Virus record (IMG/VR): IMGVR_UViG_3300029305_002470
Span: 22,517 to 86,516 of that record
Reading direction: 5' to 3' (one strand)
Length of the DNA: 64,000 nucleotides
DNA from: a virus
Taxonomy: Duplodnaviria > Caudoviricetes
This document shows, in pieces, positions 7,679 to 45,545 of this stretch (the stretch's first letter is position 1; each line of letters opens with the position of its first letter). The translations under genes and the position numbers were made by a program. The notes below the pieces were generated by a model that did no database searches, was not told the DNA's origin, and saw only the letters and a list, made by a program, of their open reading frames with translations.

Positions 7679-7735
7679 ATAACCATCTCCTTTTATTCTA
7701 AGCAATAAAAAAGATAGCCATATAGACTATCTATT

Positions 7736-8899: not shown

Positions 8900-8901
8900 A
8901 A

Positions 8902-9713: not shown

Positions 9714-9827
9714 TACTATTTCCTCTCATTCATTATATACTTTTACATCCTTGTTTCCCTAACTGTTATATTTGTAGTAATATTAACAAAGTAACAAAAC
9801 ACCATGATTTCAAAGTTTGTGATATTT

Positions 9828-12431
9828 TTAACACTGTCCAGATTTCTGTTCAGCATATATCTTACGCATGAACATCCTTTTATATTCTTTACGAGCAATA
9901 TGCGCACATTCTTCAGAACAATATTTTTTTTCTACATAATCTACGTCTTCAATCCTTGCTCCACATATAGGACATATACTTCCAAGAGCAGAAGAATTGC
10001 GTTGTATATTCTGATAGATTTCTTTTCCAAAACATTCCCATAATGTTTTTTTTGAACTATTTTTTCGTTGCACATATAAAAAATAAATTAATGTATCAAC
10101 AATAGTTTCTTGAGAAAAAGGTAATGCTAATAATTTCTTTTTTATCTGTTGATAAATATAACTATCATATTTCTTTGTGTTTAAATTATCTTTATCATCA
10201 ATAACTTTATAAAATTTATATTTATGTGAATTTAAATAATCATATGTTGTAACAATATCTTCATATATATCTTTATACAAATATTTTTTATCATGCAATA
10301 AAACACGGTAATCAAATTTACCTATACTTTTATTAAATTTAATTCTTACATTAGGGATAATATTTTCTAAATAATTAACGGCAGTGGGCTTCCACGATGT
10401 TATTTGATGCTCAGACTTATCTTTAGCATATTTAAAATAATACGGCAATAAATCTGTTGTATAACTTTTAATTATTTTATCTATATCATTTGGTCTTTTT
10501 ATTTTATACAGTGTTTTAGCGTAATCAATTACAAAATTATTTTCACATGTTAACCACTTAACAACATTGATTTCTCTATCTGTAATTTTTCCACTATTCC
10601 AAACCTTAGAAATGTTATTACTAATTATACCAATATTACCGCCAGTATAAGCTAATTCCAAACCATGAAATAAAGTATTGCCATTAATTTGTGATGGTTC
10701 AGCTTTTCGCATATTATAATATAATGGAACAATATTTTGCATATTACGTTTAGCTAAACGAATTAATTGTTTTTCTCTGACTACAAGACTTTTGTCTCCG
10801 TCAACATCAAATTGTAAAATTTTACTTATCAAATCATGACAACTCGTATAAACACATTTAGTATCAAACCATTTATCCGTCAAATCATTTTGCACATTTC
10901 TACGAATAGCATGTTCCTTATATAAATGTGGCGAACGCAAACAATCTAATTCTTCGCCATCTCTATATAAATTACAACTAATTTCACCTTTTGATAATAA
11001 ACCTTGTGGATTTTTATCTCCTAAAAATAACCATTCACAAAAAGCATAAAGGTCTGGTGCAAGAAAAGTATACTTACCATCAATCGCTAATTTACCAGCC
11101 TTACCCCATTTAACTAAACTACGCTTAACATCTTTAATAATATCTCTGCTATATTTATCTCGCATTAACTCAGGATATAACATTAAGCTCTTTTGAATAT
11201 AACTTGGACTTATATTCTCTTCTACCGCTCCAAGCAAACGCATTGTTGTTCTATAATCTTCACCAACATTTTTTATTTCTTCAACAGTACGTTTAGCTAG
11301 TGAACGCATTTCTCTCGGTTTAATATCAGTTAATGTTTGCAACATCTGATAATTAATACGAGCATTTGGTATAAATTCTTCCTCTTGATTTATACGACCT
11401 GCCGTACAACAATATTCTTTATACCATCTTTTATATTGTTCCCATGAATCATAATATTTCCACATTTTAAATTGTGATTTAGTAAATATATATTTAATAT
11501 CTTCTTTAAAAATATCATGTATATTACCATATATATCTTTAATAATACCACAATTACAATTAGGGTTCAAGGAATGTTCTTGTATAAATTTCCTAAAGTC
11601 AAATTTTACTAATAATCCTTTTATCCATGGAAGTCTAACCATAGTTGTTGTATCATCTAACATAATACCACAACCATCCATGTGTGGAATTAAAACATCC
11701 ATACATTGTCGTGTAATAGAATAATCAGTATCGTCTATATAATCAACTTCATCATTTACAAAGGTTTCGAAATCATCTACTACAATTGCTTTATCAATAT
11801 TAAAATCTTCCCAAACCTCTGTTGCAGAATTGGCTAAAGCATAATAAGCTAGAAATTTATTTACATTAACTCCACCACGGCGATTAATTTCTTCAATGCT
11901 TAATCCACACATCAATGTCTTTTCATATTGTTTTAATTTTTCTTCTTTTACTACTACAAATTTTTTTGTTCTTATTTGTCCTGCGCTTGCACTAAATAAT
12001 ACATATTTTTGTCCATTATATATAAAACCGTTTTTTATAATATCTTCTGCAACTTGAAAAAAATAAACTTGCACAATCATTATATCTTCAGTAAGTTCAT
12101 TTGTTTTACATTGAAATGTTCTTGTTAAAAATGATTCAAATATTGATACTACATTTCTATCATTAATACATTCAGTTCTTAATTCTCTTAATTGATTATT
12201 TTGTCTTGTTTGTTCAAATTCTTTATATAATTTATTTTTTTGATTATTAATATATTTATCTATTTTATTTAATTGATGTGAATATAATGAATCTCTTTTC
12301 TTTTTATTTTTAATTTTATTTCTTAAATAATATAATCTTACTAACTTATTATGTATATTCATTTCTTGCTGGTTATAAAAGCAAGCCGTATCCAACGAAT
12401 ACACATGTATCTGCTTTTCTAATCCAAGCAC
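9828..12431 (-). CDS. Single-subunit double-psi-barrel RNA polymerase (SPbeta YonO-like)
   Basis: 867 aa with SAGQIRTKK, DGCG, RSPH and the catalytic QFDVDGD (DxDGD) motif. Confidence 0.85.
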   Translation of the reverse strand: MLGLEKQIHVYSLDTACFYNQQEMNIHNKLVRLYYLRNKIKNKKKRDSLYSHQLNKIDKYINNQKNKLYKEFEQTRQNNQLRELRTECINDRNVVSIFESFLTRTFQCKTNELTEDIMIVQVYFFQVAEDIIKNGFIYNGQKYVLFSASAGQIRTKKFVVVKEEKLKQYEKTLMCGLSIEEINRRGGVNVNKFLAYYALANSATEVWEDFNIDKAIVVDDFETFVNDEVDYIDDTDYSITRQCMDVLIPHMDGCGIMLDDTTTMVRLPWIKGLLVKFDFRKFIQEHSLNPNCNCGIIKDIYGNIHDIFKEDIKYIFTKSQFKMWKYYDSWEQYKRWYKEYCCTAGRINQEEEFIPNARINYQMLQTLTDIKPREMRSLAKRTVEEIKNVGEDYRTTMRLLGAVEENISPSYIQKSLMLYPELMRDKYSRDIIKDVKRSLVKWGKAGKLAIDGKYTFLAPDLYAFCEWLFLGDKNPQGLLSKGEISCNLYRDGEELDCLRSPHLYKEHAIRRNVQNDLTDKWFDTKCVYTSCHDLISKILQFDVDGDKSLVVREKQLIRLAKRNMQNIVPLYYNMRKAEPSQINGNTLFHGLELAYTGGNIGIISNNISKVWNSGKITDREINVVKWLTCENNFVIDYAKTLYKIKRPNDIDKIIKSYTTDLLPYYFKYAKDKSEHQITSWKPTAVNYLENIIPNVRIKFNKSIGKFDYRVLLHDKKYLYKDIYEDIVTTYDYLNSHKYKFYKVIDDKDNLNTKKYDSYIYQQIKKKLLALPFSQETIVDTLIYFLYVQRKNSSKKTLWECFGKEIYQNIQRNSSALGSICPICGARIEDVDYVEKKYCSEECAHIARKEYKRMFMRKIYAEQKSGQC

Positions 12432-22906: not shown

Positions 22907-23662
22907 ATGATACAATTATATAATGATGATTGTTTTAACATATTTAAATCTATAGAAGATAATTCTATAGATTTAATATTATGTGATTTGCCATATGGAT
23001 TAAGTCGCACAAAAAAGATATGGGATTGTGCGTTACCATTAGATAAATTGTGGCAAGAATATAATCGTATTATTAAATCACAAGGTAATATAGTTTTATT
23101 TAGTAGTGGGTTGTTTACTATTGATTTAATTAACAGCAATCGTAAACAATATAAATATAAACTTATATGGAAAAAGAATACTGCAAGCGGTATGGGACTT
23201 GCTAAATATCGTCCTATGAATTATTACGAAGAGATATGTGTATTTAATAATACTAATGCTACATATAATCCTCAGATGAAACTAAGAGAAAACAAAGCTA
23301 AACATTCATATAAATACAATCATTCATGCCGTAATAGTAATCATGTTAATTTTAAAGATAAAGAATATAAATATAATCCAGATTGGGTACAGCCAAGTAA
23401 TGTTTTAGAATTTAATACTGTACCTAATCGTAATGGTAAATTGCATCCAACACAAAAACCAGTAGATTTATGTGAATGGTTAATTAAAACATATAGTAAT
23501 GAAAATGATATTGTATTGGATAATTGTATGGGCAGTGGGACTACTGGTGTGGCATGTATAAATACTAATAGAAATTTTATTGGTATTGAAATAGATGATG
23601 GTTATTTTAATATAGCGGAGCAAAGAATAAATGAAAAAACGAATAGACCCAATAATGGTTAA
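22907..23662 (+). CDS. DNA methyltransferase (beta class, N6A/N4C)
   Basis: CDLPYG, HPTQKP, DNCMGSGTTG. Confidence 0.9.
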   Translation: MIQLYNDDCFNIFKSIEDNSIDLILCDLPYGLSRTKKIWDCALPLDKLWQEYNRIIKSQGNIVLFSSGLFTIDLINSNRKQYKYKLIWKKNTASGMGLAKYRPMNYYEEICVFNNTNATYNPQMKLRENKAKHSYKYNHSCRNSNHVNFKDKEYKYNPDWVQPSNVLEFNTVPNRNGKLHPTQKPVDLCEWLIKTYSNENDIVLDNCMGSGTTGVACINTNRNFIGIEIDDGYFNIAEQRINEKTNRPNNG

Positions 23663-24144: not shown

Positions 24145-24903
24145 ATGAATTATTTTGGTAGCAAAAGTAGACAAGCTAAATATATTGTACCTATTATACA
24201 AAAGTATATAGATGATAATGGTGTTAGTATGTATTTAGAGCCATTTGTAGGTGGAGCAAATATTATAGATAAAATAGTTTGTGATAATAAAATTGGCACA
24301 GATATAAATAAATATATTATAGCATTATTTAACTATATACAAAATGGTGGACGATTAAAAGATTCTTATACAAAAGATATATATGATAAAGCTCGTAAAG
24401 CTTGGCACAATAATAATAAAGATAAAGAATTTGAAGATTGGGAAATAGGTGCTATAGGTTGGCTGTGCAGTTATAATGGTCGTGGGTTTGATGGTGGATG
24501 GGGATATGAAGCTATGCAAACTAAGCCAAATGGAAAGACTGTACATAGGAAGTTTTATGAAGAGCGCAAAAATAATTTACTAAAACAAGCACAATCTCTA
24601 TTATGGCAGGATATTAAGTTTGAATGTTTAGATTATAGAGAACATTATCTAGTTAACTGTGTAATATATTGTGACCCACCCTATAAAGGGACAAAACAAT
24701 TTGCCAATTCTGTTAAGTTTGACCATGAAGAATTTTGGGATATTATGAGGGATTGGAGTAAAAGAAATATAGTTCTTATTTCTGAGCAAGAAGCACCAGA
24801 TGATTTTGTTTGTATTTGGGAAAAAGAGGTAGCAAGAACTATTATACCAAAAGCAATACCGAAGTCAACTGAAAAATTATTTATATATAAGGATAATATA
24901 TGA
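24145..24903 (+). CDS. DNA adenine methyltransferase (Dam/D12-like)
   Basis: NYFGSK, EPFVGGAN, YCDPPY, FDHEEFW, EKLF. Confidence 0.9.
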   Translation: MNYFGSKSRQAKYIVPIIQKYIDDNGVSMYLEPFVGGANIIDKIVCDNKIGTDINKYIIALFNYIQNGGRLKDSYTKDIYDKARKAWHNNNKDKEFEDWEIGAIGWLCSYNGRGFDGGWGYEAMQTKPNGKTVHRKFYEERKNNLLKQAQSLLWQDIKFECLDYREHYLVNCVIYCDPPYKGTKQFANSVKFDHEEFWDIMRDWSKRNIVLISEQEAPDDFVCIWEKEVARTIIPKAIPKSTEKLFIYKDNI

Positions 24904-27980: not shown

Positions 27981-28774
27981 TGTTTGGATGATATGTTACT
28001 CAGAATTTACATAGTTTTTTAACGTAAATGGCGGTAATTTCAAGAGAAAGATGGATTATGATATAGTTGATTGTTTAAATAAATAAAATGTCTTAAAATC
28101 TTGATAGGTCAATATTTTTAATATGGTAAATGAGAAAAACAGTACAAAACGTACTGTTTTTTTATTGTGCTTGTTTTTAGGACATTGAATGTACGGTTTT
28201 TTACTGAATGTATTGTTTTTGGTGGTAAATGTAAAGTTTGTTTTACGTATGTAAAGTATTCTTTACATGGAATAATAGTTTGGAGATTGTGTGGAAAGAG
28301 GGTAGATTAGATGTGGAAATTTTGTAATATACAGGGATATTTAAATGTTGGAAAAGAGTTGGAATTTTAAGGGGTTGAGGGAATTTAGGTATATAGTTTA
28401 TTGCTGGCTGATTCATGTCTGATGACTGGTTTGGTATGGCTTCGAAGAACTTGAAGTTAGTTATCTCTAACTCGTTTGAAAAATACCCCCTCTTGCATAA
28501 AATTTTTGTGAAAAAACACAAAATAAGGGATAAAAAAATAGTGAAAATGATTATTTTCACTAAAATAATATATCATTTTATCGGTCAACTTGATTTTATC
28601 TTTTGTTCAAAATCACAAAAAATCAGCTTATATTGCACTGTTTTTTGTGTATTTTCACAATATAACGTGTTCTAATATGGCGTTGAATTTTGTGGTAAAA
28701 CACAAAAAAATCCTTAAAATTTGTGTAAAATACACAAAAAATATTGTATACATGTGTACCATGCAAGCGTATAA

Positions 28775-28890
28775 ATACAAGTATACTTGTATACAATAGC
28801 GTGTATACTTGTACACACAACACAACAATGTATACAATCAAGTAAATGTATATATGAATACATTCATCTGTATACTTGTATACATATGTA
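28775..28890. promoter_or_regulatory. GntR-family-like operator cluster (GTATACTTGTA x3, TTGTATACAA)
   Basis: 18-bp palindrome ATACAAGTATACTTGTAT at 28775-28792; GTATACTTGTA at 28781, 28803, 28870. Confidence 0.45.
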
Positions 28891-28904
28891 TATATATTCA
28901 TATA

Positions 28905-28931
28905 TTAGCACTCATTCATTGTGAGTGATAA
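28905..28931. promoter_or_regulatory. CIRCE element 1 (HrcA operator, one mismatch)
   Basis: TTAGCACTC-N9-GAGTGATAA. Confidence 0.85.
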
Positions 28932-28937
28932 CAATAA

Positions 28938-28964
28938 TTAGCACTCGTTTATATTGAGTGCTAA
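28938..28964. promoter_or_regulatory. CIRCE element 2 (perfect)
   Basis: TTAGCACTC-GTTTATATT-GAGTGCTAA. Confidence 0.95.
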
Positions 28965-28967
28965 CTA

Positions 28968-28994
28968 TTAGCACTCGTATTCAGTGAGTGCTAA
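28968..28994. promoter_or_regulatory. CIRCE element 3 (perfect)
   Basis: TTAGCACTC-GTATTCAGT-GAGTGCTAA. Confidence 0.95.
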
Positions 28995-29015
28995 TAGTTA
29001 AAAGTTTCACAATAT

Positions 29016-29031
29016 TGTTTCACGTGAAACA
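29016..29031. promoter_or_regulatory. parS site 1 (ParB/Spo0J binding)
   Basis: TGTTTCACGTGAAACA, perfect consensus palindrome. Confidence 0.9.
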
Positions 29032-29062
29032 TAACAAAATATTTTTATCTTTATTGTACCTT

Positions 29063-29078
29063 TGTTTCACGTGAAACA
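29063..29078. promoter_or_regulatory. parS site 2
   Basis: TGTTTCACGTGAAACA. Confidence 0.9.
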
Positions 29079-29585
29079 TTGTACCATTGTACTAATACAT
29101 TAATACAATAATATACATGTTAAAAAAATATCAATATTGTTGCTATACACAAATTATGAATGTTTCACGATATAAATTTTGTATGTTTCACACAAATAGT
29201 AGAATTTTTAACGAGAGTTTTAATAAACTAACTTTTGTGTTTCAGAACAAAAAATTTAAAAATTATTTGTGTATTCAATACAAAATTGATAAATTTTTAA
29301 CGCTATTTTCAGTATAAAAATGAAAAAAACATAAAAAAACAATTGTGTTGTAAACATAAAAAATTTAAAAAAAATTTGTGTAAATACACAAATAAAATAT
29401 AGCATGTCAGCAATACGATTTTATCATATTTTCAGAGCCTCAAAACGTTGAAATTTCAATGCTTCCAGCCTCAAAAATAGCAAAATGTTTTTTCAGTTTC
29501 CTTCATTATAACGCGTGTAAAGCCCTTCTTGAATTGTATTATTGTATTAATACAGTCATACAATAAAGTCGGTTTAAACTGACAA

Positions 29586-29613
29586 TTGACACAACTAAAA
29601 AAATTCTTAAAAT
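29586..29613 (+). promoter_or_regulatory. First early promoter
   Basis: TTGACA-N16-TAAAAT, flanked by two operator palindromes. Confidence 0.6.
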
Positions 29614-29695
29614 GATAATTGCAAGGCGGCAAAAAGTCCGCACATTCTCACATAGTCGGTTTAAACTGACAAATACAGAAAGGAAAGGTTACATT

Positions 29696-30316
29696 ATGAA
29701 AACTACAAACAACGCAAAGGTAAAGGTTACAACTCTTAACGCTCAGACAATTGAAATGCTCAACGTTCAGCTTGATATTATCAAATCAAAAGGTACAACG
29801 TCACTTAATGCTGATATTGCAAGGGCAAAGGCACTCTATACCATTAAAGATGCCGCACTCTATGAGTGCGACAATTGCAAGTCCTTTAAAGAATGGTATA
29901 ACGTAAAACATGACGGTACAATCTATGGTATTACGTACAAATCAGCTTGTATTCTTATCAATACATATGCTAACGTATGGTCACATAAAACATTTAAGGC
30001 ACTGCCTTTATCAATTGCGTGCCGTATGGCGTCAGCTTGCAAAAATGCTGACAATGTAAAAGCATGTGAAAGGCTTGTTGCGGAAGGTAAAATTAAGCCT
30101 GACATGACACAAAACGCCATAAATGATTTACTTAAGGCGGAAGGTATTGTAAAGGCAAAAACTGACAATTTGAGTGCGCCAGCACCAAAAACCGCTGACG
30201 CTGACAATGACACCGTAAAGGTTGCGCTTGCTATGGTCAACGCTTTTATGAAAAGCAATTGCAAGGATGAAACAATAATGGATAATTGGAACGTCATACT
30301 TGATGCGCTTAAGTAA
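29696..30316 (+). CDS. First early gene, hypothetical (weakly DUF3102-like)
   Basis: AGAAAGGAAAGG RBS before ATG 29696; higher GC than neighbours; has its own terminator. Confidence 0.75.
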   Translation: MKTTNNAKVKVTTLNAQTIEMLNVQLDIIKSKGTTSLNADIARAKALYTIKDAALYECDNCKSFKEWYNVKHDGTIYGITYKSACILINTYANVWSHKTFKALPLSIACRMASACKNADNVKACERLVAEGKIKPDMTQNAINDLLKAEGIVKAKTDNLSAPAPKTADADNDTVKVALAMVNAFMKSNCKDETIMDNWNVILDALK

Positions 30317-30330
30317 TTCATACTCACATA

Positions 30331-30368
30331 TGACCGCCGAAAGGCGGTCATTGTTTTTTCTTTTTTTA
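30331..30368 (+). terminator. Intrinsic terminator
   Basis: TGACCGCC-GAAA-GGCGGTCA followed by a T-rich run. Confidence 0.85.
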
Positions 30369-30498
30369 TACGTGCGCATTTTTCTGAATAAAGCGGATAA
30401 AATTTTGCCCACAAAGGGATTTTGCGGAGTCAGTTTAAACTGACAATTAGCAATTAAAAATTGCCGTAAAATAAATTTGCGAGTAAAATTTTGCCCAC

Positions 30499-30527
30499 TT
30501 GACAATAGCAGAAAAATTTTATACTAT
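30499..30527 (+). promoter_or_regulatory. Early sigma-A promoter
   Basis: TTGACA-N17-TACTAT(AAT). Confidence 0.75.
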
Positions 30528-30597
30528 AATAGTGGATATTAAATCCGCCACTCAAAAAGTCAGTTTAAACTGACAGCTTAAGAAAGGAAGTGCTTAA

Positions 30598-30912
30598 ATG
30601 AAAACAAAAATTGCAAGACAGATTCAGTTTAATAAATTTGATAGAATTCACATTGACAAAACTATCGACCTTTTGGTTGATATGTGCAATATTATGCTTG
30701 ATGCGGTTGATGTGGGCGATGAATTTGATTCAATTACAAATATTGATATGTGCGATGCAGATACTGGAGAGGTTATTGCTATGCGCTCAGAGCTTGAAAA
30801 TTGTGCAATGACACTTGCGAACCTTTGGAATTATATAAAAGATAATATTAATGAAGATATTAATATAGAATGTCATGAAGCAGGCAAGATAAAAGTTGAC
30901 AGCATGTTTTAA
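30598..30912 (+). CDS. Early hypothetical protein (acidic)
   Basis: AGAAAGGA RBS. Confidence 0.7.
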   Translation: MKTKIARQIQFNKFDRIHIDKTIDLLVDMCNIMLDAVDVGDEFDSITNIDMCDADTGEVIAMRSELENCAMTLANLWNYIKDNINEDINIECHEAGKIKVDSMF

Positions 30913-30924
30913 TTCTGTTATTAT
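30896..30924 (+). promoter_or_regulatory. Early sigma-A promoter
   Basis: TTGACA-N17-TATTAT with extended TG. Confidence 0.7.
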
Positions 30925-31159
30925 AATGGTGGGCGTGGATTTTGCCCATGCTCACCATTGTTTCAAAATGAATTCAGCAAAAGTCAGTTTAAACTGACAA
31001 TTCAAAATTGAATTCAAAAATCCATCTTAAAAATCGAAATGAGAATTTAAAATGCGCTTTTAAGTTTTGATTTAGATTTTTGAAACTATTTTTGAATTTT
31101 AGTTTTGAAATTCTATTATGAAATTCTAATTTCAGTTTTTAATTTTGCGAGGTGTAATT

Positions 31160-31486
31160 ATGATTAATTTTGAAAATATTGCAACATATAATCTGTATGT
31201 TGGTCTGAATGACAAGGATAAATATGTTCAGATTATTGATGATGATTTTGCTATGCAGACAGTGCGCGATGTCGTATCTAATATTGTAGGTGGTGCGACT
31301 TTTACAAAATCATTCGGACATTGGGTGGATGAATTCGGAAATGAAACTACAGAATCGACTATTGTTGTTAAAATTACTGCGACAGATGATGCGCACATTG
31401 AGCGCATATGTGAAATTCTGAATTCAAAATTAAATCAGAATTGCATAATGGTTGAGAAAAGTTTGTCGCAGATTGCCTTTGTATAA
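31160..31486 (+). CDS. Probable S-adenosylmethionine lyase (SAMase / DUF3574-like)
   Basis: YVGLNDKD, GAT-----G-W-------TEST-V, L---LNQ-CI-VE pattern resembles phage SAM lyases; early-region location. Confidence 0.55.
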   Translation: MINFENIATYNLYVGLNDKDKYVQIIDDDFAMQTVRDVVSNIVGGATFTKSFGHWVDEFGNETTESTIVVKITATDDAHIERICEILNSKLNQNCIMVEKSLSQIAFV

Positions 31487-31582
31487 TTTTAGATTGAAAA
31501 TTTGGCATGAATTTTCATGCCATTCTTTGAATCTAAAATGAAATTCTAATTTGGATTTTTAAAATAGGAAGGTGGGCAAACT

Positions 31583-31813
31583 ATGTATAGACAATATGAG
31601 AATCCATGGGAATTGGAAGAAGAATTGGCTAAACTTGAATATGAATTAACTATGGCGGAATATGAGGGTACATCCGATGAAGAATTGGCTGACATTCAGA
31701 TGTCAATTTATGAAATGAAAGACCGCATAAATTTCGCATGGCAGGACAATGAATTTGAATGCGATAATTATGACTATGCGGATGAATTGTGGATGATGGA
31801 AAACTGCTATTAA
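31583..31813 (+). CDS. Highly acidic early protein
   Basis: GGAAGG RBS, Asp/Glu-rich. Confidence 0.7.
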   Translation: MYRQYENPWELEEELAKLEYELTMAEYEGTSDEELADIQMSIYEMKDRINFAWQDNEFECDNYDYADELWMMENCY

Positions 31814-31900
31814 TTTTGGTCTGAAATTTTGGGGCGGAAATTTTGCCCCATTATTTGAAATCAAAATTGAATTTCTAAAATAAAATTATGAGGTGATATT

Positions 31901-32083
31901 ATGGAAAAATGGTACAATTATGAAACTGAAAATCCGATTATTAAGGATGAACTGCGCAGATATTTTCATGAGAATAAAATCAAATATGAATTATCCGCAT
32001 GTTTTGATGGGTGGCATTTTGAAATTTACCTTAATGAAAATGAGGTTGAAAATGTAAACTCATTTTTGAATTCTATTTATTAA
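31901..32083 (+). CDS. Early hypothetical protein
   Basis: GAGGTG RBS. Confidence 0.7.
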   Translation: MEKWYNYETENPIIKDELRRYFHENKIKYELSACFDGWHFEIYLNENEVENVNSFLNSIY

Positions 32084-32111
32084 TTCTGATTTAGATTTTG
32101 TGGGGTGAATT

Positions 32112-32297
32112 ATGAAACGAATTTTTAATAAGGTTATGTTTTATTTTGGGGTAATTCTGTTTATTCTTGGATGGAGTAGTATTGATAGTGAACATAATTT
32201 AATAGCGTTCATTATGGCTTTTGGCGGTCTTGGTATTGCATATTTGAATAGGAGTGTGTATTATGAATATAACAGAGAATATGATGAAGAACTTTAG
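32112..32297 (+). CDS. Early membrane protein (two TM helices)
   Basis: GGGGTG RBS, hydrophobic segments. Confidence 0.6.
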   Translation: MKRIFNKVMFYFGVILFILGWSSIDSEHNLIAFIMAFGGLGIAYLNRSVYYEYNREYDEEL

Positions 32298-32445
32298 CAT
32301 AATTATGCGGATATATTGGGATGATATATGCGTTGCTATATTCGGATATAATTCGGAATCAAAATTCTATACGGATTTTATACATGAAATGGATAATCTT
32401 ATTACTAATGGACGCATTGAAGTTATGCGATTTGACAATCTTTAA
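32281..32445 (+). CDS. Early hypothetical protein
   Basis: ORF, start uncertain. Confidence 0.4.
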   Translation: MMKNFSIIMRIYWDDICVAIFGYNSESKFYTDFIHEMDNLITNGRIEVMRFDNL

Positions 32446-32460
32446 AGCTTATGCTACTAT
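32432..32460 (+). promoter_or_regulatory. Early sigma-A promoter
   Basis: TTGACA-N17-TACTAT with extended TG. Confidence 0.75.
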
Positions 32461-32541
32461 AATTATGGGTTTTGAAATTGCCCACCGAAAGTCAGTTTAA
32501 ACTGACAAATTCAAATTGAAAATTGAAAAGGAGATTTTAAA

Positions 32542-32703
32542 ATGGAATTTGAAAATGTAATCAAAGCTTTTAATACATGCAAGGATTTTAGCGAATATGA
32601 TGAACGTGAGTGGGATTATTTCGATGATGATGAATTTTATGAACGCACCGAAGATTATAATATACCATATGATGGTGAAGATTGGGGATTTGGTGAATTT
32701 TGA
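32542..32703 (+). CDS. Very acidic, aromatic-rich 53 aa protein (not in ORF track)
   Basis: AAGGAG RBS; MEFENVIKAFNTCKDFSEYDEREWDYFDDDEFYERTEDYNIPYDGEDWGFGEF. Confidence 0.65.
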   Translation: MEFENVIKAFNTCKDFSEYDEREWDYFDDDEFYERTEDYNIPYDGEDWGFGEF

Positions 32704-32784
32704 TTTGAGAATTTGAGTCTAATATGTTAGACTCATTTTCTGAAGTCAAAATCTAATTTCAAATTTTAATTATGAGGTGACATT

Positions 32785-33099
32785 ATGAATACTATGCACT
32801 ATAAGAATGATAAAAATTGTGATGTTCGCCGTGAGATTATTAAAAAGTATATTGGATATGGCAATGAAGTTTTTAGGGCAGAAGTAGACCGTGGTCATAA
32901 AAACGGTTCTGAAATTCATGTTGTAACTGATAGTGGTATTATTGAAATTTATAATACAAGAACCAAAAAGCATATTACAGATTTGATTGCAAGACCGAAT
33001 CAGATTAAGCGTGTTTATAATGCCAAGAATGAATTTGCCCCAAAATGGTTATTAGATATTGCAAAAGATAATATGGATAAAGGTTATAACTTGGTATGA
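32785..33099 (+). CDS. Conserved early phage protein
   Basis: VDRGH-NG-EIH------GII-I-N--T---IT-LIARP-QI-R motif. Confidence 0.75.
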   Translation: MNTMHYKNDKNCDVRREIIKKYIGYGNEVFRAEVDRGHKNGSEIHVVTDSGIIEIYNTRTKKHITDLIARPNQIKRVYNAKNEFAPKWLLDIAKDNMDKGYNLV

Positions 33100-33128
33100 A
33101 ATTCTAATTTAAGAAAGGAAAATGAATT

Positions 33129-33353
33129 ATGAAAATCGAATATGATTTTAGGGTTGATATGACAGTTTGTGAATTGGTGCAGTATCTTTATGATGAATTA
33201 CAGAATGAGGCAAGACATACTGATTATATTATTAGTCGGAATAAATGTGATGATGTATCTCATTTTTGGATTGAAGCAAGTATTGCACGTGAAAACAAAC
33301 TTTATGATTTAATAGATGATATATGCCTTAAGGCACATCAGGCAGATGAATAG
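33129..33353 (+). CDS. Early hypothetical protein
   Basis: AGAAAGGA RBS. Confidence 0.65.
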   Translation: MKIEYDFRVDMTVCELVQYLYDELQNEARHTDYIISRNKCDDVSHFWIEASIARENKLYDLIDDICLKAHQADE

Positions 33354-33405
33354 TTTTGGTGTATCAGAATCGAACTGAAATTCCAATTTGAAAAGGAGAA
33401 TTCAA

Positions 33406-33741
33406 ATGAAATATTATATTACATATTATGAAGCATATCCGATTTATGAGCCAGCAGAAGGCGGATATTATTATGAAGGAATTAATGCGGTTGAGTGGGC
33501 ATATTGGGATGAAGAAAATAATTTTGATGAAGTCTTTAATCATATTGGAGAACTTGCCGAGAAATATGACCTTAAAAATCTAAACATAGATAAGAAATGG
33601 GCATATGATATGGTAAATGAATATGGTAATATTATGGTTGCTATAGATAGGTCAAAATATATTGGCGATAATAGGTATCTATATTTAGAAAATGAAACCG
33701 CATTTAAATCTGAGGAATGTGGTTGGCATCCTTATGAATAA
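33406..33741 (+). CDS. Conserved early phage protein
   Basis: AAGGAG RBS; YPIYEPAEGGYY motif. Confidence 0.7.
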   Translation: MKYYITYYEAYPIYEPAEGGYYYEGINAVEWAYWDEENNFDEVFNHIGELAEKYDLKNLNIDKKWAYDMVNEYGNIMVAIDRSKYIGDNRYLYLENETAFKSEECGWHPYE

Positions 33742-33770
33742 AATCGAAACTGAAATTGCGGGGTGAAATT

Positions 33771-33992
33771 ATGAAAATGGCAGATTTTTTTGAAAGATTT
33801 GATGCGTTTTTTAGTAATTATAATAAAATTACAATGTTAGTAGAAAATTGTAAACATTCTCGTAGAGATTATAATATTACAACACATGAAGCAGTTCATT
33901 ATAAAGAAATGTGGTGGAGAAATTTAGAAATCGAATATTTTTCATTTGATTATGATAATGTATTGTATATCGTAGCAAAGGAGTGTGAATAA
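33771..33992 (+). CDS. Early hypothetical protein
   Basis: GGGGTG RBS. Confidence 0.6.
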   Translation: MKMADFFERFDAFFSNYNKITMLVENCKHSRRDYNITTHEAVHYKEMWWRNLEIEYFSFDYDNVLYIVAKECE

Positions 33993-34467
33993 TATGAAAA
34001 TCAATCTGAAAAAAGTAATCTCAATTATGATTCTTATTGTAGCTTTTGAAGTAGTATATCTCATTGGGTTTTATATGCCTAACAAAGTTGCATATGGTAA
34101 TTCAGAAGAAGAAATTGCCACGGAAAATCTGATTTCAGAAGATGAAATGGAAATCGAAAATGAAGATTTAATTTCGGAAAATGAAATTGCCGAGTGTGAT
34201 TTGACAGACAATGAGGATTGTGATATTATAATAACGGATGATGAGTCCGATGTTAACGATGAAGATATTGTTGAGATTGAAGAATCAGAACCTACACTTG
34301 AAGATATACTAATTGATGAATGTCCGTTTTTTGTAATAGATGAGATAAATGAAATTGATTCTTATGCAAAAGGAAATTGGTATTGCTATTACATTTATGC
34401 AGATGGTGATGTATACGTTGTAACAACAAAGAATGGTCACGTTGATATTTGTGTACAGTTGAATTAA
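33985..34467 (+). CDS. Membrane-anchored protein with long acidic linker
   Basis: N-terminal TM helix, D/E-rich middle. Confidence 0.7.
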   Translation: MNNMKINLKKVISIMILIVAFEVVYLIGFYMPNKVAYGNSEEEIATENLISEDEMEIENEDLISENEIAECDLTDNEDCDIIITDDESDVNDEDIVEIEESEPTLEDILIDECPFFVIDEINEIDSYAKGNWYCYYIYADGDVYVVTTKNGHVDICVQLN

Positions 34468-34536
34468 AAGTCAGTTTAAACTGACCAAAATTGAAATGAA
34501 AATTTAATTTGAAATTCTAAAATGGAGAGGTGAATT

Positions 34537-34830
34537 ATGAACGCATATGAAATCAGACTTAATAATGTAAAGCTTATGCACAATACTATGATTGATATGA
34601 ATAATGAGAACGCATATTTTACATGGATATATATAATGCCAGATGAACCTATGGAAGATGATTTTGAATGGTTCGCAGAAGATGAAGAAAGATATATAGA
34701 ATTATATACATCATTTATGCGTATATTTAATAGGTATATTAAAGATGGATTGTTTAATCCGAGTGATGAGGTGGTGGATTTTGCTCATAAATTTAAGGAA
34801 GAATTTGATATTTTTAAATGGGAACATTAA
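34537..34830 (+). CDS. Early acidic hypothetical protein
   Basis: GAGGTG RBS. Confidence 0.7.
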   Translation: MNAYEIRLNNVKLMHNTMIDMNNENAYFTWIYIMPDEPMEDDFEWFAEDEERYIELYTSFMRIFNRYIKDGLFNPSDEVVDFAHKFKEEFDIFKWEH

Positions 34831-34859
34831 AATTGAATTTGAAATTGTGAGGTAAAATT

Positions 34860-35051
34860 ATGACTTATATTGTAGACTTTGTAATACATGGATATCATGA
34901 GATAGAAGTTAAATCTGATAATTATGAGGATGCTATAAGTTCGGCAGAAGAAATTATGAGCATGACAGATTTTGGAGCATTAAATTATGATATAGATGCT
35001 GAAGTATATGCTGTCGAAGATGAAGATGGTAATACAAGATATGAATTTTGA
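34860..35051 (+). CDS. Early acidic hypothetical protein
   Basis: GAGGT RBS. Confidence 0.65.
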   Translation: MTYIVDFVIHGYHEIEVKSDNYEDAISSAEEIMSMTDFGALNYDIDAEVYAVEDEDGNTRYEF

Positions 35052-35059
35052 GGTGAATT

Positions 35060-35236
35060 ATGAGTGAGAAAATTGAATATCTAATTTCAAAATTAGCAGA
35101 GAGTTATATTGATGAAGCATTGTCAAGACAGTGTGGACAGATTATGTTTGCGGCAGATGATATGGAAATTAGCGTTGAAGATTTGAATATATTATTGGAT
35201 TGGTTTGGTATAAATGAAGATGATTATTTAATATGA
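35060..35236 (+). CDS. Early acidic protein (58 aa, not in ORF track)
   Basis: GAGGTG RBS. Confidence 0.6.
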   Translation: MSEKIEYLISKLAESYIDEALSRQCGQIMFAADDMEISVEDLNILLDWFGINEDDYLI

Positions 35237-35245
35237 GGTACGATT

Positions 35246-35443
35246 ATGGTACGAGAACATATAGAATATATTTCATTATCGGCAGAAGAAGATAAAATTG
35301 TAACTGAATTTAAAAATATGTTATCAAATTATCTTTCCGATATTGAAAAAGAAGATGCGTTTCCTACATTATCAGATACATATTTAGATGCACAGCATCT
35401 ATTAGAAGTTTTAAATGTATTTATTAGAAAGAACATACGTTAA
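35246..35443 (+). CDS. Early hypothetical protein
   Basis: GAGGT RBS. Confidence 0.6.
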   Translation: MVREHIEYISLSAEEDKIVTEFKNMLSNYLSDIEKEDAFPTLSDTYLDAQHLLEVLNVFIRKNIR

Positions 35444-35471
35444 TTTTGAATTTGAAATTGTGGGGTGGATT

Positions 35472-35798
35472 ATGGAATTCAAAGAATTAATTCGGAAATT
35501 TTATCCAAATGTTAATATAGTTATGATGGAACTGTGTCCATATTATGATTCGGCTAAATCATTTTATGGTAAAGCAAAAGTTTTTGAAATTGGAAATGAT
35601 GTTTTTCTTATGAGTTATGATACTATTGTGGCATCTTATAATCGAGGTGCAAAAATGGCACAAGTATTTGATACTTATAGTGCAACTACGCTTAGACATA
35701 TTAAAGAGTTTTTAAAACAGAGTGGATTTAAAGCTGAATCAAAAAAGCAAATTGAAAAAGATTATTGCCTTGAAAATTTGGGGGAGAAATATGTTTAA
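35472..35798 (+). CDS. Conserved early phage protein
   Basis: KSFYGKAKV...L-SY-T-VA...SATT-RHIKEFL-Q motif. Confidence 0.75.
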   Translation: MEFKELIRKFYPNVNIVMMELCPYYDSAKSFYGKAKVFEIGNDVFLMSYDTIVASYNRGAKMAQVFDTYSATTLRHIKEFLKQSGFKAESKKQIEKDYCLENLGEKYV

Positions 35799-35988
35799 TA
35801 TTGAAATGGAATATATGAAATCGTATGCTAAAATTGCAAGCGAAGCAATCACGGCAATGGCATTAGTATGGGAACAGATGCAGTTTAATGAAACAGAACC
35901 AGAAATTTTGGCAGAGGATTATCCACTTGACAAATCGTTTGATGAATTTGCATTTGAATTTTCACAGTGGATTCATAATTGGACTTAA
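35791..35988 (+). CDS. Early acidic hypothetical protein
   Basis: GGGGAG RBS. Confidence 0.6.
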   Translation: MFNIEMEYMKSYAKIASEAITAMALVWEQMQFNETEPEILAEDYPLDKSFDEFAFEFSQWIHNWT

Positions 35989-36002
35989 AAATTTTGCTTG
36001 AC

Positions 36003-36031
36003 TTGACAGCCTTATAAAAGTATGTTATTAT
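36003..36031 (+). promoter_or_regulatory. Early sigma-A promoter
   Basis: TTGACA-N17-TATTAT with extended TG. Confidence 0.7.
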
Positions 36032-36036
36032 AATAG

Positions 36037-36113
36037 TGCGATGAGAGATGGCACAAAAAACGTGGTGTGTTTGTCTTTCCTTTCTAAATATAAAATTCCA
36101 TTTCTCATCGCAA
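36037..36113 (+). ncRNA. Structured leader or small RNA with an exposed pyrimidine loop
   Basis: Outer stem TGCGATGAGAGATGG/CCATTTCTCATCGCA enclosing a hairpin and CTTTCCTTTCT. Confidence 0.4.
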
Positions 36114-36187
36114 CTTGAAATTCTAAAATCAATTTTAAAATTCTAAACGAGTCAGTTCAAACTGACTGAAAGATTAAGAGGTAAATT

Positions 36188-36475
36188 ATGAATAGATACA
36201 GAATTTGCGGAACAGTTAGCGTTGATGTTTATGCTGAAATTGATGCTCCAACTTTTGAAGATGCTATGGAATATGCAAGAGATAATTTCCGTATGGAAGA
36301 ATATTGTAATGGCAGTGTTGGTTGTGAAGATGGTAGTTATGAATTTGGAGATGCAGAAGTAACTTGCTGTTGTGATATTGATTGGTATGAAGATTATTCT
36401 GAACTTGTCGAAGAGAATGTTGAAACTGAAACTGACATTTGGGAAACAGAAGAAGAAAATGAAGAAGAAGATTAA
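36188..36475 (+). CDS. Very acidic early protein
   Basis: GAGGT RBS; D/E-rich. Confidence 0.7.
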   Translation: MNRYRICGTVSVDVYAEIDAPTFEDAMEYARDNFRMEEYCNGSVGCEDGSYEFGDAEVTCCCDIDWYEDYSELVEENVETETDIWETEEENEEED

Positions 36476-36680
36476 ATGGGTATGCGAATTGCCGCTGGAA
36501 ATTCAAGCTGAAATTCAAAATGAAATTTATGATTTGTTTGTAGAAATTGGCATAGATAATTTGGAAGAATCTGTAGAACGTGCTATGAATGAAAAGCTAA
36601 TTAATATTATTGGTAGTGAATATGGATTGTTACCATATGAGAAATATGCTAAATATATTTTTGAAGGAGTAGACATATGA
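36459..36680 (+). CDS. Early hypothetical protein
   Basis: ORF overlapping the upstream stop. Confidence 0.55.
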   Translation: MKKKIKWVCELPLEIQAEIQNEIYDLFVEIGIDNLEESVERAMNEKLINIIGSEYGLLPYEKYAKYIFEGVDI

Positions 36681-36919
36681 AAATCTATACTGAAGATTCA
36701 ATTCGTAATTTCAATTTCTGGAGTGGTGCTTGTAATACCGTAGCAGATTTAATATGGGATGATTTTGATATTATAGAAGAAAATCTCGAAGTGCTTTTTA
36801 ATGGCGAGATGACAGATACCGACCTTAATGATTTCTTTTGGTTCGAACGTGATACTATCGCTGAGTGGCTTGGTTATGATAATTATGATGAATTGATGCA
36901 CGACAGAAATGAAGATTAA
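36677..36919 (+). CDS. Conserved acidic early phage protein
   Basis: F-FWSGA...T-T-LNDFFWFE-D-I-EWLG motif. Confidence 0.75.
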   Translation: MKIYTEDSIRNFNFWSGACNTVADLIWDDFDIIEENLEVLFNGEMTDTDLNDFFWFERDTIAEWLGYDNYDELMHDRNED

Positions 36920-36946
36920 TCTAACTTGTTAGATTGAGGTGGTGGT

Positions 36947-37156
36947 ATGAGAACAGTAAAACATTATCCAAGAAGTTGTTATTTTCCAAATGAAATTCAA
37001 ACTCGAAATGCTATGCGTGAATACGATGAGAAGAAAAGAATTTGGTACGAAGAATTGGAAAGATTGTGTCCTAATTATTATCAGTTAGGATTAAGAGAGC
37101 GACAGCCAATTCGCGCCGAAGTAGATAAGATTGTAGGTTTTCATTTAGATTATTAG
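36947..37156 (+). CDS. Early hypothetical protein
   Basis: GAGGTG RBS. Confidence 0.65.
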   Translation: MRTVKHYPRSCYFPNEIQTRNAMREYDEKKRIWYEELERLCPNYYQLGLRERQPIRAEVDKIVGFHLDY

Positions 37157-37170
37157 AAAGGAATTTCAAA

Positions 37171-37431
37171 ATGAAAAAATGGACTGTGTATAAAGTTTAT
37201 GCTGAAGATTATAAAGATATTTATAGTATGATTGTGCCAGCACCATCTAAAAAGGAAGCCGAAGATTATGTGCGGCGTGGTGGGCTTGACATTATAAAAA
37301 CAAAAGAACTTTCGGATTTGAAAATCAATGTTGATTATCTTGGTAATCATCTTAGAAAAGAGGGTTATGATGAAGATGGCATAGATGTTATATGTAGACT
37401 TATTCAGATGGTTGGACTGTGCGAGGTGTAA
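37171..37431 (+). CDS. Early hypothetical protein
   Basis: AGAAAGGA RBS. Confidence 0.7.
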   Translation: MKKWTVYKVYAEDYKDIYSMIVPAPSKKEAEDYVRRGGLDIIKTKELSDLKINVDYLGNHLRKEGYDEDGIDVICRLIQMVGLCEV

Positions 37432-37433
37432 TT

Positions 37434-37796
37434 ATGAGAGAGATAGTTGATTGGAGAATTACAAAGCGAACTAAGCTTTTGGAAATCAATAATGATATGT
37501 GTCATAATTATTATTATCTTATTAATGGACGCATTAATAATGCTGACCGAAGTGCATATAGAAAATTTAAATTCGTAATTTGGTTTGATATTTTTGATGT
37601 CGATGAATTTTTTAATCATGTTGAGGATGATGTATGGCTTGACCGACCAATTACAGATGAAGATATTTCAGAATATGTAGACGAATGTATATGTTGTTAT
37701 ACTGATATGATTTATTCATATGAAAATTGTAATGACTTTTATAAAATGTGTAATGATTCTATTGTAAGATATAATGAAATAGCTAAACATTGGTAG
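37434..37796 (+). CDS. Early hypothetical protein
   Basis: GAGGTG RBS. Confidence 0.7.
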   Translation: MREIVDWRITKRTKLLEINNDMCHNYYYLINGRINNADRSAYRKFKFVIWFDIFDVDEFFNHVEDDVWLDRPITDEDISEYVDECICCYTDMIYSYENCNDFYKMCNDSIVRYNEIAKHW

Positions 37797-37847
37797 GTTG
37801 AAATTCGATTTGAAATTCTAATCTGAAAAGCGTTATCAAAATCTAAT

Positions 37848-37876
37848 TTGACAGATTAATAAAGCCATGCTATAAT
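37848..37876 (+). promoter_or_regulatory. sigma-A promoter (perfect consensus)
   Basis: TTGACA-N17-TATAAT with extended TG. Confidence 0.85.
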
Positions 37877-37915
37877 AATATATATCAATAAAAGTGAGCC
37901 GAAAGGAGCGCAGAT

Positions 37916-38503
37916 ATGAAACCTTATGCACTTAAATATTTCAGCACTGATTTTTTAAAAGATGCAGACATTACTAAGATTGGTATGTATGTTTGGACAC
38001 CATATTCTAATATCAAAGATGAATTTAGGGATGAGGTTGATGAACCTTGGACAGATGATTATGATGAAGAATGTGTTCCGATTTTTGAAAACAATCTTTT
38101 TAAATTCTGTATTGACCCTATGAATTATGAATATTGTATGGGTTCATATTTTGAAGAAGAATTACTTGATGAATTTTTCGACAATGTAATTAAACCATTT
38201 AATCATTATATGGTATGTGCATATCATTGTGATTGGCGTGGCAGAAATGGATATAAAATTTGCGATAGTCTTGCTGAAGCATTTTGCAGAGATTACGATG
38301 TAACACAGTATTATGTTGGTGGAAGCAGTGGTGGAAAATCAATCTGTATTTGCGAACATAGTCATGATGTTCCAATGGGACATACCACAATGATTATTGG
38401 ACTGACAGATAAAGAATATGAAAAATTTAATCATTGGGATGTAGCTTTTGAAACTGTATTTGATTTTGCAGATAGAAATTCTAAATCAATTATTGAAATC
38501 TAA
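37916..38503 (+). CDS. Early acidic hypothetical protein
   Basis: AAGGAG RBS; HSHD-PMG motif. Confidence 0.75.
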   Translation: MKPYALKYFSTDFLKDADITKIGMYVWTPYSNIKDEFRDEVDEPWTDDYDEECVPIFENNLFKFCIDPMNYEYCMGSYFEEELLDEFFDNVIKPFNHYMVCAYHCDWRGRNGYKICDSLAEAFCRDYDVTQYYVGGSSGGKSICICEHSHDVPMGHTTMIIGLTDKEYEKFNHWDVAFETVFDFADRNSKSIIEI

Positions 38504-38569
38504 TTTGAAATTTGAATCTTAAATTTTGAGTCAGTTTAAACTGACATTATTTGAAAGGAGAATAACATT

Positions 38570-44732: not shown

Positions 44733-45545
44733 ATGAAAACATATTTAGATTTATTTTTAAATGAATATGAAAGTGCAGGAACAAGACGTAATTATAATGG
44801 TACAATTTCCGCCATGCTTAATGCAATCAATAAGGATATAAATAATATTACTAAAATTGACCTTGTTGAATATAAGAATACGTTTAAAAATTTGGCGGCG
44901 AGTACACAGGCGCAAAAAATTATTTGTATTAAATCTTATTTTAAATTTCTTTTTGATAATGATGTTATAGAATCTAATCCTGCTGAGAAATTATCCACGC
45001 CAAGAGTGGAGCATAAACCAAAAGATGCACTTACTACTGATGAGGCAATTATGTTAATGCATTATGGCAACAAAAGAGAACGTGCAATTATAGCAACATT
45101 TTTAAATACTGGTATTAGAGTGCAGGAATTAATAGATATAAAATTTGTAGATTATATAAAAGAACCAAGTAAAATGGTTTTAAAAACTAAGAGAGGTAAG
45201 TATCGTACTGTTTATTTAAATGATGATACAATCAAACTTATAAATGAATATCTTAAAGTACGTAAGGAAGGATGTGATAATCTTTTTGTAAGCAATCAGG
45301 GAACTCCATTATCAGAATATAGTTTAAATAACACATGGAAAAAGTTAGCAACTAAAGCTGGGATTGATAAACATATTACCAATCATAGTTTTAGGTCTAC
45401 ATTTGTAACCACTATTGCAAGAGAACACGGCATACTTATGGCACAGATGGCAGTTAATCATGCTAATATTGCGACCACAAGAATATATGTGCGTGGTATG
45501 GAAGATGAAGTTGAAGCTGTAGTTAGAGGTTTGAAAGTATGTTAG
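44733..45545 (+). CDS. Tyrosine recombinase (XerC/D-like)
   Basis: Complete catalytic set: TGIR, KTKRGK, HSFR, NH, TRIY. Confidence 0.92.
   Translation: MKTYLDLFLNEYESAGTRRNYNGTISAMLNAINKDINNITKIDLVEYKNTFKNLAASTQAQKIICIKSYFKFLFDNDVIESNPAEKLSTPRVEHKPKDALTTDEAIMLMHYGNKRERAIIATFLNTGIRVQELIDIKFVDYIKEPSKMVLKTKRGKYRTVYLNDDTIKLINEYLKVRKEGCDNLFVSNQGTPLSEYSLNNTWKKLATKAGIDKHITNHSFRSTFVTTIAREHGILMAQMAVNHANIATTRIYVRGMEDEVEAVVRGLKVC

Follow-up and report, generated by a model that had tools for sequence, protein, structure and literature searches.

Results

A palindrome-rich island upstream of the early genes

The window analysed in this study is a stretch of 64,000 nucleotides of viral DNA (bases 22517-86516 of the 86.5-kb IMG/VR record IMGVR_UViG_3300029305_002470), and its subject is a region of 1.7 kb that carries no gene and separates the last gene of an upstream plus-strand operon from the first early gene (Table 1; positions are those of the window). 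In this island, as we call it, consensus operators of bacterial regulators stand side by side with palindromes that look specific to the phage lineage. An earlier sequence-only reading had described here about 1.1 kb without a gene, arranged as blocks of palindromes next to the early region, and had proposed a panel of decoys for host transcription factors. All the motif blocks that it named were found where it had placed them, and the island does adjoin the early region, with the first early promoter and the first early gene at its right end; the gene-free length had been underestimated.

Palindromes with arms of at least 7 bases number 20 in the island against 3.7 ± 1.9 (maximum 9) in 200 dinucleotide shuffles (z ~8), which is the highest count of any segment of the record, where the median is 4. 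A chance origin is thus excluded. The sequence-only reading had named beforehand a motif density no higher than in shuffled sequence as decisive against it; the density is far above the shuffles. No stop-free frame of the island is conserved in the related phages described below, and the small open reading frames at 28243-28560, 28623-28901 and 29117-29317 were rejected as genes since they lack such conservation. Likewise, no Rfam family was found in the island, a permissive threshold giving only chance microRNA-like matches on the palindromes.

Consensus sites of HrcA, ParB and a GntR-type regulator

Two of the families are exact consensus sites of bacterial hosts, as had been claimed. Three tandem repeats, which start 33 and 30 bp apart and all differ in their spacers, conform to the inverted repeat TTAGCACTC-N9-GAGTGCTAA of the controlling inverted repeat of chaperone expression (CIRCE), the operator of the heat-shock repressor HrcA (PMC3192767). 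Both copies of the 16-bp palindrome TGTTNCACGTGAAACA agree with the consensus of parS (PMC7022226), the site of the chromosomal ParB/Spo0J protein. The number of exact matches expected from base composition is 6e-7 for CIRCE and 8e-5 for parS, and both are confined to the island within the whole 86.5-kb record. Bacterial genomes themselves carry few copies of CIRCE, from one to five in each of the genomes G001-G005 and two in S. thermophilus (PMC3192767).

The array shares with the class I heat-shock operons (groESL and hrcA-grpE-dnaK-dnaJ) the identical 9-N9-9 inverted repeat and the position of the first CIRCE, which directly adjoins a -10-like hexamer in the manner of host promoters. It differs from them in having three copies in tandem and no strong promoter, the sole promoter-like site abutting the first CIRCE scoring 9/12, and in the lack of a chaperone gene, as no Cpn10 was found in the record and no chaperone among its annotated genes. 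As for parS, three dispersed sites of this type with one mismatch each (8255, 92946 and 103501) were noted in Bacillus phage PBC2 (KT070867.1, 169 kb), an arrangement reminiscent of phi29.

A third family is a predicted host operator as well, of the YtrA type of GntR regulators, because the same 22-mer precedes GntR genes in bacteria. This block, previously read as TGTA-N12-TACA, occurs exactly in 24 bacterial genomes (L226-L249) that range from Acidobacteria to Saccharibacteria and Spirochaetes and include many Firmicutes. Its context there is promoter-like throughout, and in 17 of the 24 it lies on the 5' side of a short GntR-like gene. At the one bacterial locus that was scanned, the gene encodes a GntR domain (PF00392, 8e-17) and is followed by the ATPase gene of an ATP-binding cassette (ABC) transporter, a gntR-ABC layout of which B. 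subtilis ytrA is the type (PMC8060467). Letter for letter, the phage site is the auto-operator that in those 17 genomes lies between the promoter and the GntR start codon. The phage differs in having no neighbouring GntR or ABC genes and in carrying a second, diverged copy, 22 bp upstream of the -35 hexamer of the early promoter. Three contigs of 95-166 kb also carry the 22-mer, in CA-rich stretches without genes. For an operator, such strict identity across Acidobacteria, Planctomycetes, Spirochaetes, bacteria of the candidate phyla radiation and Firmicutes is unusual; a gntR-ABC cassette that has spread horizontally may be the reason.

Proteins that would match these sites were sought in the 86.5 kb of the record, which is rated as linear and 71% complete, and no ParB_N, HrcA, GntR, Cpn10, ParA-type ATPase (AAA_31) or HTH_3 domain was found. 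The parS copies are thus unaccompanied by a cognate parAB in this part of the genome, as on phi29, where host parS sites are likewise used by a phage lacking ParB; the GntR-type operator has no adjacent autoregulated gntR and no ABC transporter gene beside it. The sites exist, they match the host consensus, and they are unique to the island, conserved in relatives and without a matching gene in the 86.5 kb.

Palindromes that look lineage-specific

The TTGTG-N6-CACAA family comprises nine copies, four of them exact (28506, 28645, 28690 and 29376) and five close variants. Most of the nine are paired at a distance of 31-33 bp, and they flank the core of host-type sites on either side. Pairs with the same spacing are present in the related phages L223, L224 and L225. 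With 16-17 bp, the sites are 2 bp shorter than the 18-bp Rex consensus TTGTGAA-N4-TTCACAA (PMC5355995), they do not fit the CRP/FNR operator TGTGA-N6-TCACA, and no real match to either was found in the island at up to 2 mismatches. In 121 Clostridia genomes the pattern TTGTG-W6-CACAA has 2 matches versus 3 for a reversed-pattern control. Being neither a Rex nor a CRP/FNR site and not enriched in these genomes, the family gives no ground for the metabolic control that the sequence-only reading had included in its proposal.

The 14-mer of the GTATAC family was also rejected as a host operator, with 12 matches versus ~21 for the reversed-pattern control in 301 Clostridia genomes; one match (L254) lies on the promoter of what may be a GntR-like gene. 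In other phage contigs, GTATAC clusters adjoin CIRCE (L017 and L034) or lie elsewhere in CIRCE-bearing loci (L018 and L021), and the blocks may partly be promoter elements, a -10 hexamer TACAAT abutting CIRCE in L017 and L034. Three further families, TGTAAAG-N4-CTTTACA, CGTTGAAATTTCAA and the 16-mer GTCrGTTTAAACTGAC at the early promoter, are common only to relatives of this phage, and by their sequence the TTGTG-N6-CACAA and GTATAC families look lineage-specific too. Nine copies of the 16-mer were counted, all in the early region (29568-38545), and those at 30559 and 30983 also score as minus-strand terminator-like hairpins. Finally, a panel of operator consensus sequences (Spo0A, DnaA, LexA, Rex, CRP/FNR, cre, CodY, CtsR, NrdR, Fur, PerR, Noc, TnrA, SinR, ArgR and BirA) gave no meaningful match in the island.

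Conservation in related phages

The three related phages were found through homologues of the first early protein, which is 73% identical in L225, 58% in L223 and within 58-73% overall; an alignment-based metagenome scan with the same protein gave one short locus. L225 is colinear with positions 29062-29684 at 72% identity, and in this comparison 84% of the motif bases are identical versus 69% of those between motifs (Fisher p = 1e-5), with 16/16 bases kept in the second parS, 27/29 in the GntR-type operator and 25/26 in the parS half-sites. At the place of the CIRCE array L225 carries TTAGATATATCTAA-type palindromes. L223 has a gene-free island of its own (1.95 kb). Single copies of parS and CIRCE are present there, besides the exact 22-mer, the TGTAAAG palindrome and three TTGAAATTTCAA sites; TTGTG-N6-CACAA occurs as a pair, and the promoter is again bracketed by two 16-mers. 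The order of the motifs is different, parS standing ahead of CIRCE.

A comparison of block content across related phages had been suggested as a check of the earlier reading, and its outcome is that the motif families are kept and that their order and copy number vary. This pattern indicates that the families are under selection and that arrangement and copy number are fluid. It supports the view that the blocks are genuine, selected palindromes with predicted protein binding.

Table 1. Features of the island and its borders, in window coordinates; L223, L224 and L225 are the related phages.
Feature	Position	Strand	Remarks
Whole gene-free island	27981-29695 (1.7 kb)		Open reading frame maps; from last upstream plus-strand gene to first early gene
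Terminator-like hairpin closing upstream operon	28133-28163	+	13-pair stem, then T run
G/T-rich strand-asymmetric segment	28170-28440	+	G 27%, C 5%
Two tandem TGTAAAG-N4-CTTTACA-type palindromes	28229-28268	+	Inside G/T-rich segment; family kept in L223, L224
Promoter-like site TTGAAA-16-TAAAAT	28476-28503	+	Consensus match only, 10/12; first TTGTG-N6-CACAA site directly after
Left cluster, five TTGTG-N6/7-CACAA sites	28504-28738		28506, 28603, 28645, 28690, 28721
Palindrome with 10-bp arms	28539-28562		Inside left TTGTG cluster
GTATAC cluster, GTATAC-TT-GTATAC with TTGTATACAA core	28745-28892		2 exact, 2-3 variants
Weak promoter-like site TATACA-16-TATATT	28879-28906	+	9/12; -10 abuts first CIRCE
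Three tandem CIRCE	28905-28994		Starts 28905 (1 mismatch), 28938 and 28968 (exact)
parS, chromosomal ParB/Spo0J consensus	29016-29031		Exact match
Second parS	29063-29078		Exact match; fused to following GntR-type operator
Predicted YtrA-type GntR operator, 22-mer TTGTAyTAATACATTAATACAA with preceding half-repeat	29080-29108		Exact in L223, L224, L225
Two parS half-sites TGTTTCAC	29161-29192	+	At 29161 and 29184, 23 bp apart
Right cluster, four TTGTG-N6/7-CACAA-type sites	29235-29391		Pairs 29235/29267, 29343/29376
CGTTGAAATTTCAA palindrome	29444-29463		Single copy; L223 and L224 have three to four
Second, diverged GntR-type operator	29534-29563		Just upstream of early promoter; 26/30 conserved in L225
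16-mer pair around early promoter, lineage-specific	29568-29583, 29655-29670	+	Same layout in L223, L224, L225
First early promoter TTGACA-16-TAAAAT	29586-29613	+	Within 29568-29670, flanked by two 16-mer copies
First early gene	29696-30316	+	206 amino acids, no known family; query for finding related phages

Similar arrays in other phages

At least 113 IMG/VR contigs carry exact CIRCE sites. In about 22 of these 113 cases the site is at most 200 bp from a locus end; these were taken as host dnaK or groE promoters at prophage borders and not counted. A pattern search of IMG/VR for tandem CIRCE with a short gap gave none. Several large phage contigs contain CIRCE arrays that have no chaperone gene in their vicinity: four tandem copies in a divergent intergenic region (L056), two copies (L078), and two copies together with an exact parS in a 2-kb gene-free island of a 116-kb contig (L034). 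The 176-kb contig L064 has ten exact Rex boxes and two CIRCE within ~2 kb (3300-5300), and its relative L096 has four exact Rex boxes and three CIRCE (7000-10300); both arrays also hold a TTAGTTAGTCTAAACTAACT palindrome family. Pairs of exact Rex boxes within arrays of 2-8 such boxes occur in six further contigs. Taken together, arrays of 2-10 exact Rex boxes were noted in L064, L096, L021 and L278-L283, the boxes often being paired between small gene cassettes. Tandem pairs of exact parS are common, being found on at least 100 IMG/VR contigs. Thus host-operator islands appear to be widespread among large phages.

The layout in which a -10 hexamer abuts CIRCE, as at 28879-28906, recurs in L017, L034 and L064, and in L064 a TTGACA-17-TAGAAT promoter runs straight into CIRCE. 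In general, a promoter match of at least 9/12 stands just upstream of 52% of 122 viral CIRCE sites versus 8% of random places. Strand-asymmetric purine/pyrimidine or G/T-rich low-complexity segments, similar to that of the window, were also seen in the islands of L034 (10380-10560), L262 (7400-7900) and L096 (10400-10950). For such segments in host-operator islands of unrelated phages, an origin, R-loop formation and a role in packaging are possibilities.

Genome context

Judged by its gene content, the record appears to belong to a large tailed phage whose host is an anaerobic Firmicute; the G+C content is ~29%. The portal and further structural genes lie on the minus strand. A long run of plus-strand genes encodes an RNA ligase, DNA methyltransferases and an HD phosphohydrolase, and is followed in genome order by many small genes, one of them for an S-adenosylmethionine (SAM)-lyase-like protein. 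The last block contains a Sak4-like protein, a DnaB-like helicase, a primase, a DnaE-type polymerase, NrdD/NrdG, a dUTPase and a tRNA array, in which contigs extending past the right end of the record break. At least three DNA methyltransferases are encoded in the record (22907-23662, 24145-24903 and 52867-53670). The early gene at 31160-31486 matches DUF3574, and its match to the SAM-lyase family is weak. A 270-residue tyrosine recombinase (44733-45545; Phage_integrase domain, 2e-29) directly precedes the replication module; its length gives no sign of an arm-binding N-terminus, and it could be a dimer resolvase, a cyclisation enzyme or a small integrase.

The closest counterparts of the polymerase are those of Clostridioides phage pCD1602_4 (50.6%) and of PBC2-like Bacillus siphophages (~46%). 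Phage pCD1602_4 was rejected as a close relative, as it has only 10 of 159 proteins in common with this phage and neither CIRCE nor parS. A DNA search of 50,697 phage records gave no match to the island and its flanks, and an IMG/VR search with two flanking proteins, the first early protein and the HD protein, gave no relatives. Near-identical contigs of the phage itself are present in at least six metagenomes, and study labels on the metagenomes of more distant relatives suggest the ruminant gut as its habitat. Some of the same-phage contigs from other metagenomes start inside the island (28711, 29237, 29246 and 29429), and three independent ones begin at exactly 29496, which is ~90 bp upstream of the first early promoter. 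This position might mark a physical end of the genome, the border of a repeat or a place where strains vary; the sequence directly after it, CATTATAACGCG, is kept in L225.

Discussion

A proposed cis-acting control region

We put the probability at roughly 0.45, somewhat short of an even chance, that the island is the main non-coding control region of the phage and acts in cis, as a landing pad for host and lineage-specific proteins together. HrcA would bind the three CIRCE, ParB/Spo0J the parS copies and a YtrA-type GntR repressor the 22-mer operator, while lineage-specific, probably phage-encoded, proteins would occupy the TTGTG-N6-CACAA pairs and the other palindromes. Assembled together on the island, these proteins would couple the behaviour of the phage chromosome beside the early region to the state of the host. 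What is coupled may be transcription, either reading into the early genes or initiating there, or else positioning, segregation or trapping of the DNA, on the model of the use that phi29 makes of host parS and Spo0A boxes. Binding by host proteins, the effect in cis and the process controlled are the three points that we infer here; sequence alone cannot separate action in cis from action in trans.

Several observations argue for action in cis. The island has a terminator on one side and the first early promoter on the other, the diverged GntR-type operator adjoins that promoter, and motif bases are conserved above inter-motif bases in the comparison with L225. Moreover, CIRCE follows a promoter in L064, L017 and L034 and, weakly, in this phage, and phi29 provides a precedent. 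The proposed panel of host decoys stands in part, for three families are of host type, but a good half of the blocks are lineage-specific in appearance, and thus a mixed phage and host control region fits better than a panel made purely of host decoys. Similarly, the mixing of host sites with phased lineage-specific pairs is more typical of a nucleoprotein control region than of a plain list of decoys.

Among the closest known systems is that of the virulent phages phi29 and Nf of Bacillus subtilis, which also lack a ParB of their own and carry consensus host parS sites together with operators of a host regulator. On phi29, five dispersed parS and the Spo0A boxes act in cis, so that the lytic cycle is suppressed and the genome is segregated into the spore (PMC2731898). 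In contrast to phi29, where the parS sites are dispersed and the Spo0A boxes lie at early and late promoters, all sites are gathered here in one island, and the regulators are HrcA and, as predicted, one of GntR type. The tyrosine recombinase would be in keeping with a circular or carrier state, and in such a state it makes sense to borrow partition from the host.

A number of facts weigh against such a control region. Downstream of the CIRCE array, the first 700 bp contain neither a gene nor a conserved open reading frame, and the internal promoter-like sites are weak, with matches of 9-10/12 in AT-rich DNA. Promoter control would need fewer than three near-perfect operators in tandem, and the varying order and copy number of host sites among relatives argue against a precise promoter architecture. 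The island has no Spo0A box (the 7 in the whole record are about the chance level) and no DnaA box at up to 1 mismatch. Besides, 29% of the phage genome lies outside the record.

Alternative interpretations

It is possible, and in our view rather doubtful, that the island acts in trans as a DNA sponge, its operators, of predicted high affinity, titrating ParB and host repressors of low abundance (HrcA and the GntR) as the phage genome replicates, with no need for a phage protein. Chaperones and an ABC-transporter operon would be derepressed, and ParB/Soj-dependent control of the chromosome and of sporulation would be disturbed. The E. coli datA locus is a natural decoy array for DnaA, and the island resembles such arrays in having clustered sites of predicted high affinity without a target gene. 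Several near-perfect consensus sites stand here without a regulated gene, and every transcription factor identified is a repressor, so that titration would lead to derepression. Bacterial genomes hold so few CIRCE that a few phage copies would outnumber the host sites. Site order and number are free to vary, no phage co-chaperonin was found in the record, and unrelated phages too carry perfect operators in arrays (L064, L056 and the six Rex contigs). In a synthetic system, repeated decoy sites do change target expression (PMC3322331); however, both that system and datA are engineered or cellular and concern a single factor, whereas here several factors and a replicating viral genome would be involved. 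Autoregulation of hrcA would buffer titration, half of the island families are not of host type, and tight clustering and phasing with lineage-specific sites would be superfluous for a sponge. A sponge would also be of no use if the phage stops host transcription early, a role of parS in cis is well documented on phi29, and our literature search gave no paper demonstrating such a phage sponge.

Equally tentative is the wider suggestion that large phages of Firmicutes from gut and rumen share a general, protein-free takeover device, non-coding arrays of perfect operators (HrcA, Rex, YtrA-type GntR and others) and parS that would sponge repressors and ParB while the phage DNA is amplified. If so, chaperones, fermentation and transport would be switched on and control of segregation and sporulation blocked, and the island of this phage would be one multi-factor example.

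A nucleoprotein barrier at a genome end or at entry, in the style of the injection stop of phage T5, seems improbable. By analogy, tightly bound host proteins would clamp the DNA and thereby pause its entry, protect an end or insulate the early region, and it would matter little which proteins bind. The iss region of T5 comprises 1,662 bp of untranslated DNA, dense in palindromes and repeats, conserved among relatives and endowed with eight DnaA boxes (Davison, bioRxiv 10.1101/866236). The island resembles it in size and style: ~1.7 kb of non-coding DNA directly before the early genes, nested palindromes and repeats, boxes for host DNA-binding proteins, and conservation among relatives whose flanking genes are not conserved. 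The host proteins used differ between phage lineages, as such a barrier would allow, and the breaks of same-phage contigs inside the island, three of them at one position, agree with it as well. The T5 region, by contrast, has DnaA boxes only, lies within a long terminal repeat and is tied to the A1 and A2 genes. Here no DnaA boxes are present, and the phage is of a different type. The upstream block (RNA ligase, methyltransferases and HD phosphohydrolase) contains no recognisable T5 pre-early genes, the DnaE-type polymerase has its closest counterparts in Bacillus and Clostridioides siphophages, not in T5, and the injection-stop model for T5 is itself only a proposal.

We see little likelihood, too, in a plasmid-like maintenance or regulatory region of the kind found in phage-plasmids, for which the missing 29% would have to encode the phage's own ParB and GntR and possibly a protein similar to HrcA. 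The incompleteness of the record, the frequency of tandem parS pairs on IMG/VR contigs and the tyrosine recombinase would agree with it. Against it stand the lack of all the corresponding domains, including ParA-type ATPase and HTH_3 repressors, in the 86.5 kb and the exact universal host consensus of the sites, which is not that of a private plasmid centromere; moreover, we know of no phage-encoded HrcA. Finally, the reading of the motifs as inert relics of captured host promoter DNA or as chance palindromes of an AT-rich spacer is already close to refuted: the GntR-type operator does resemble host promoters, preceding half-repeat included, but shuffles and composition exclude chance, the motifs are conserved above background in relatives, the three CIRCE spacers differ as if arms had been kept rather than copies made, no host gene remnants are left in the island, and comparable arrays recur in unrelated phages.

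Novelty and significance

Phages are known to borrow single host factors, such as LexA, IHF, Spo0A and Spo0J on phi29 and perhaps DnaA on T5. The island of this phage is of a known kind, phage DNA with sites for host factors; what is unusual is a compact, conserved island that unites HrcA, ParB and predicted GntR-type operators with lineage-specific sites. The sequence-only reading knew of no description of such an array in a phage. This holds for the multi-factor island, no description of which was found, and must be qualified by the partial precedents of phi29 (PMC2731898) and the T5 iss region (bioRxiv 10.1101/866236).

Conservation of the island in relatives and its echo in unrelated large phages point to a widespread sensing or reprogramming of host physiology on which no coding capacity is spent. 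The islands also provide natural parts for synthetic biology and a rule for the annotation of large, seemingly empty regions in the genomes of uncultured phages, and the host operators found in such regions may aid the prediction of hosts.

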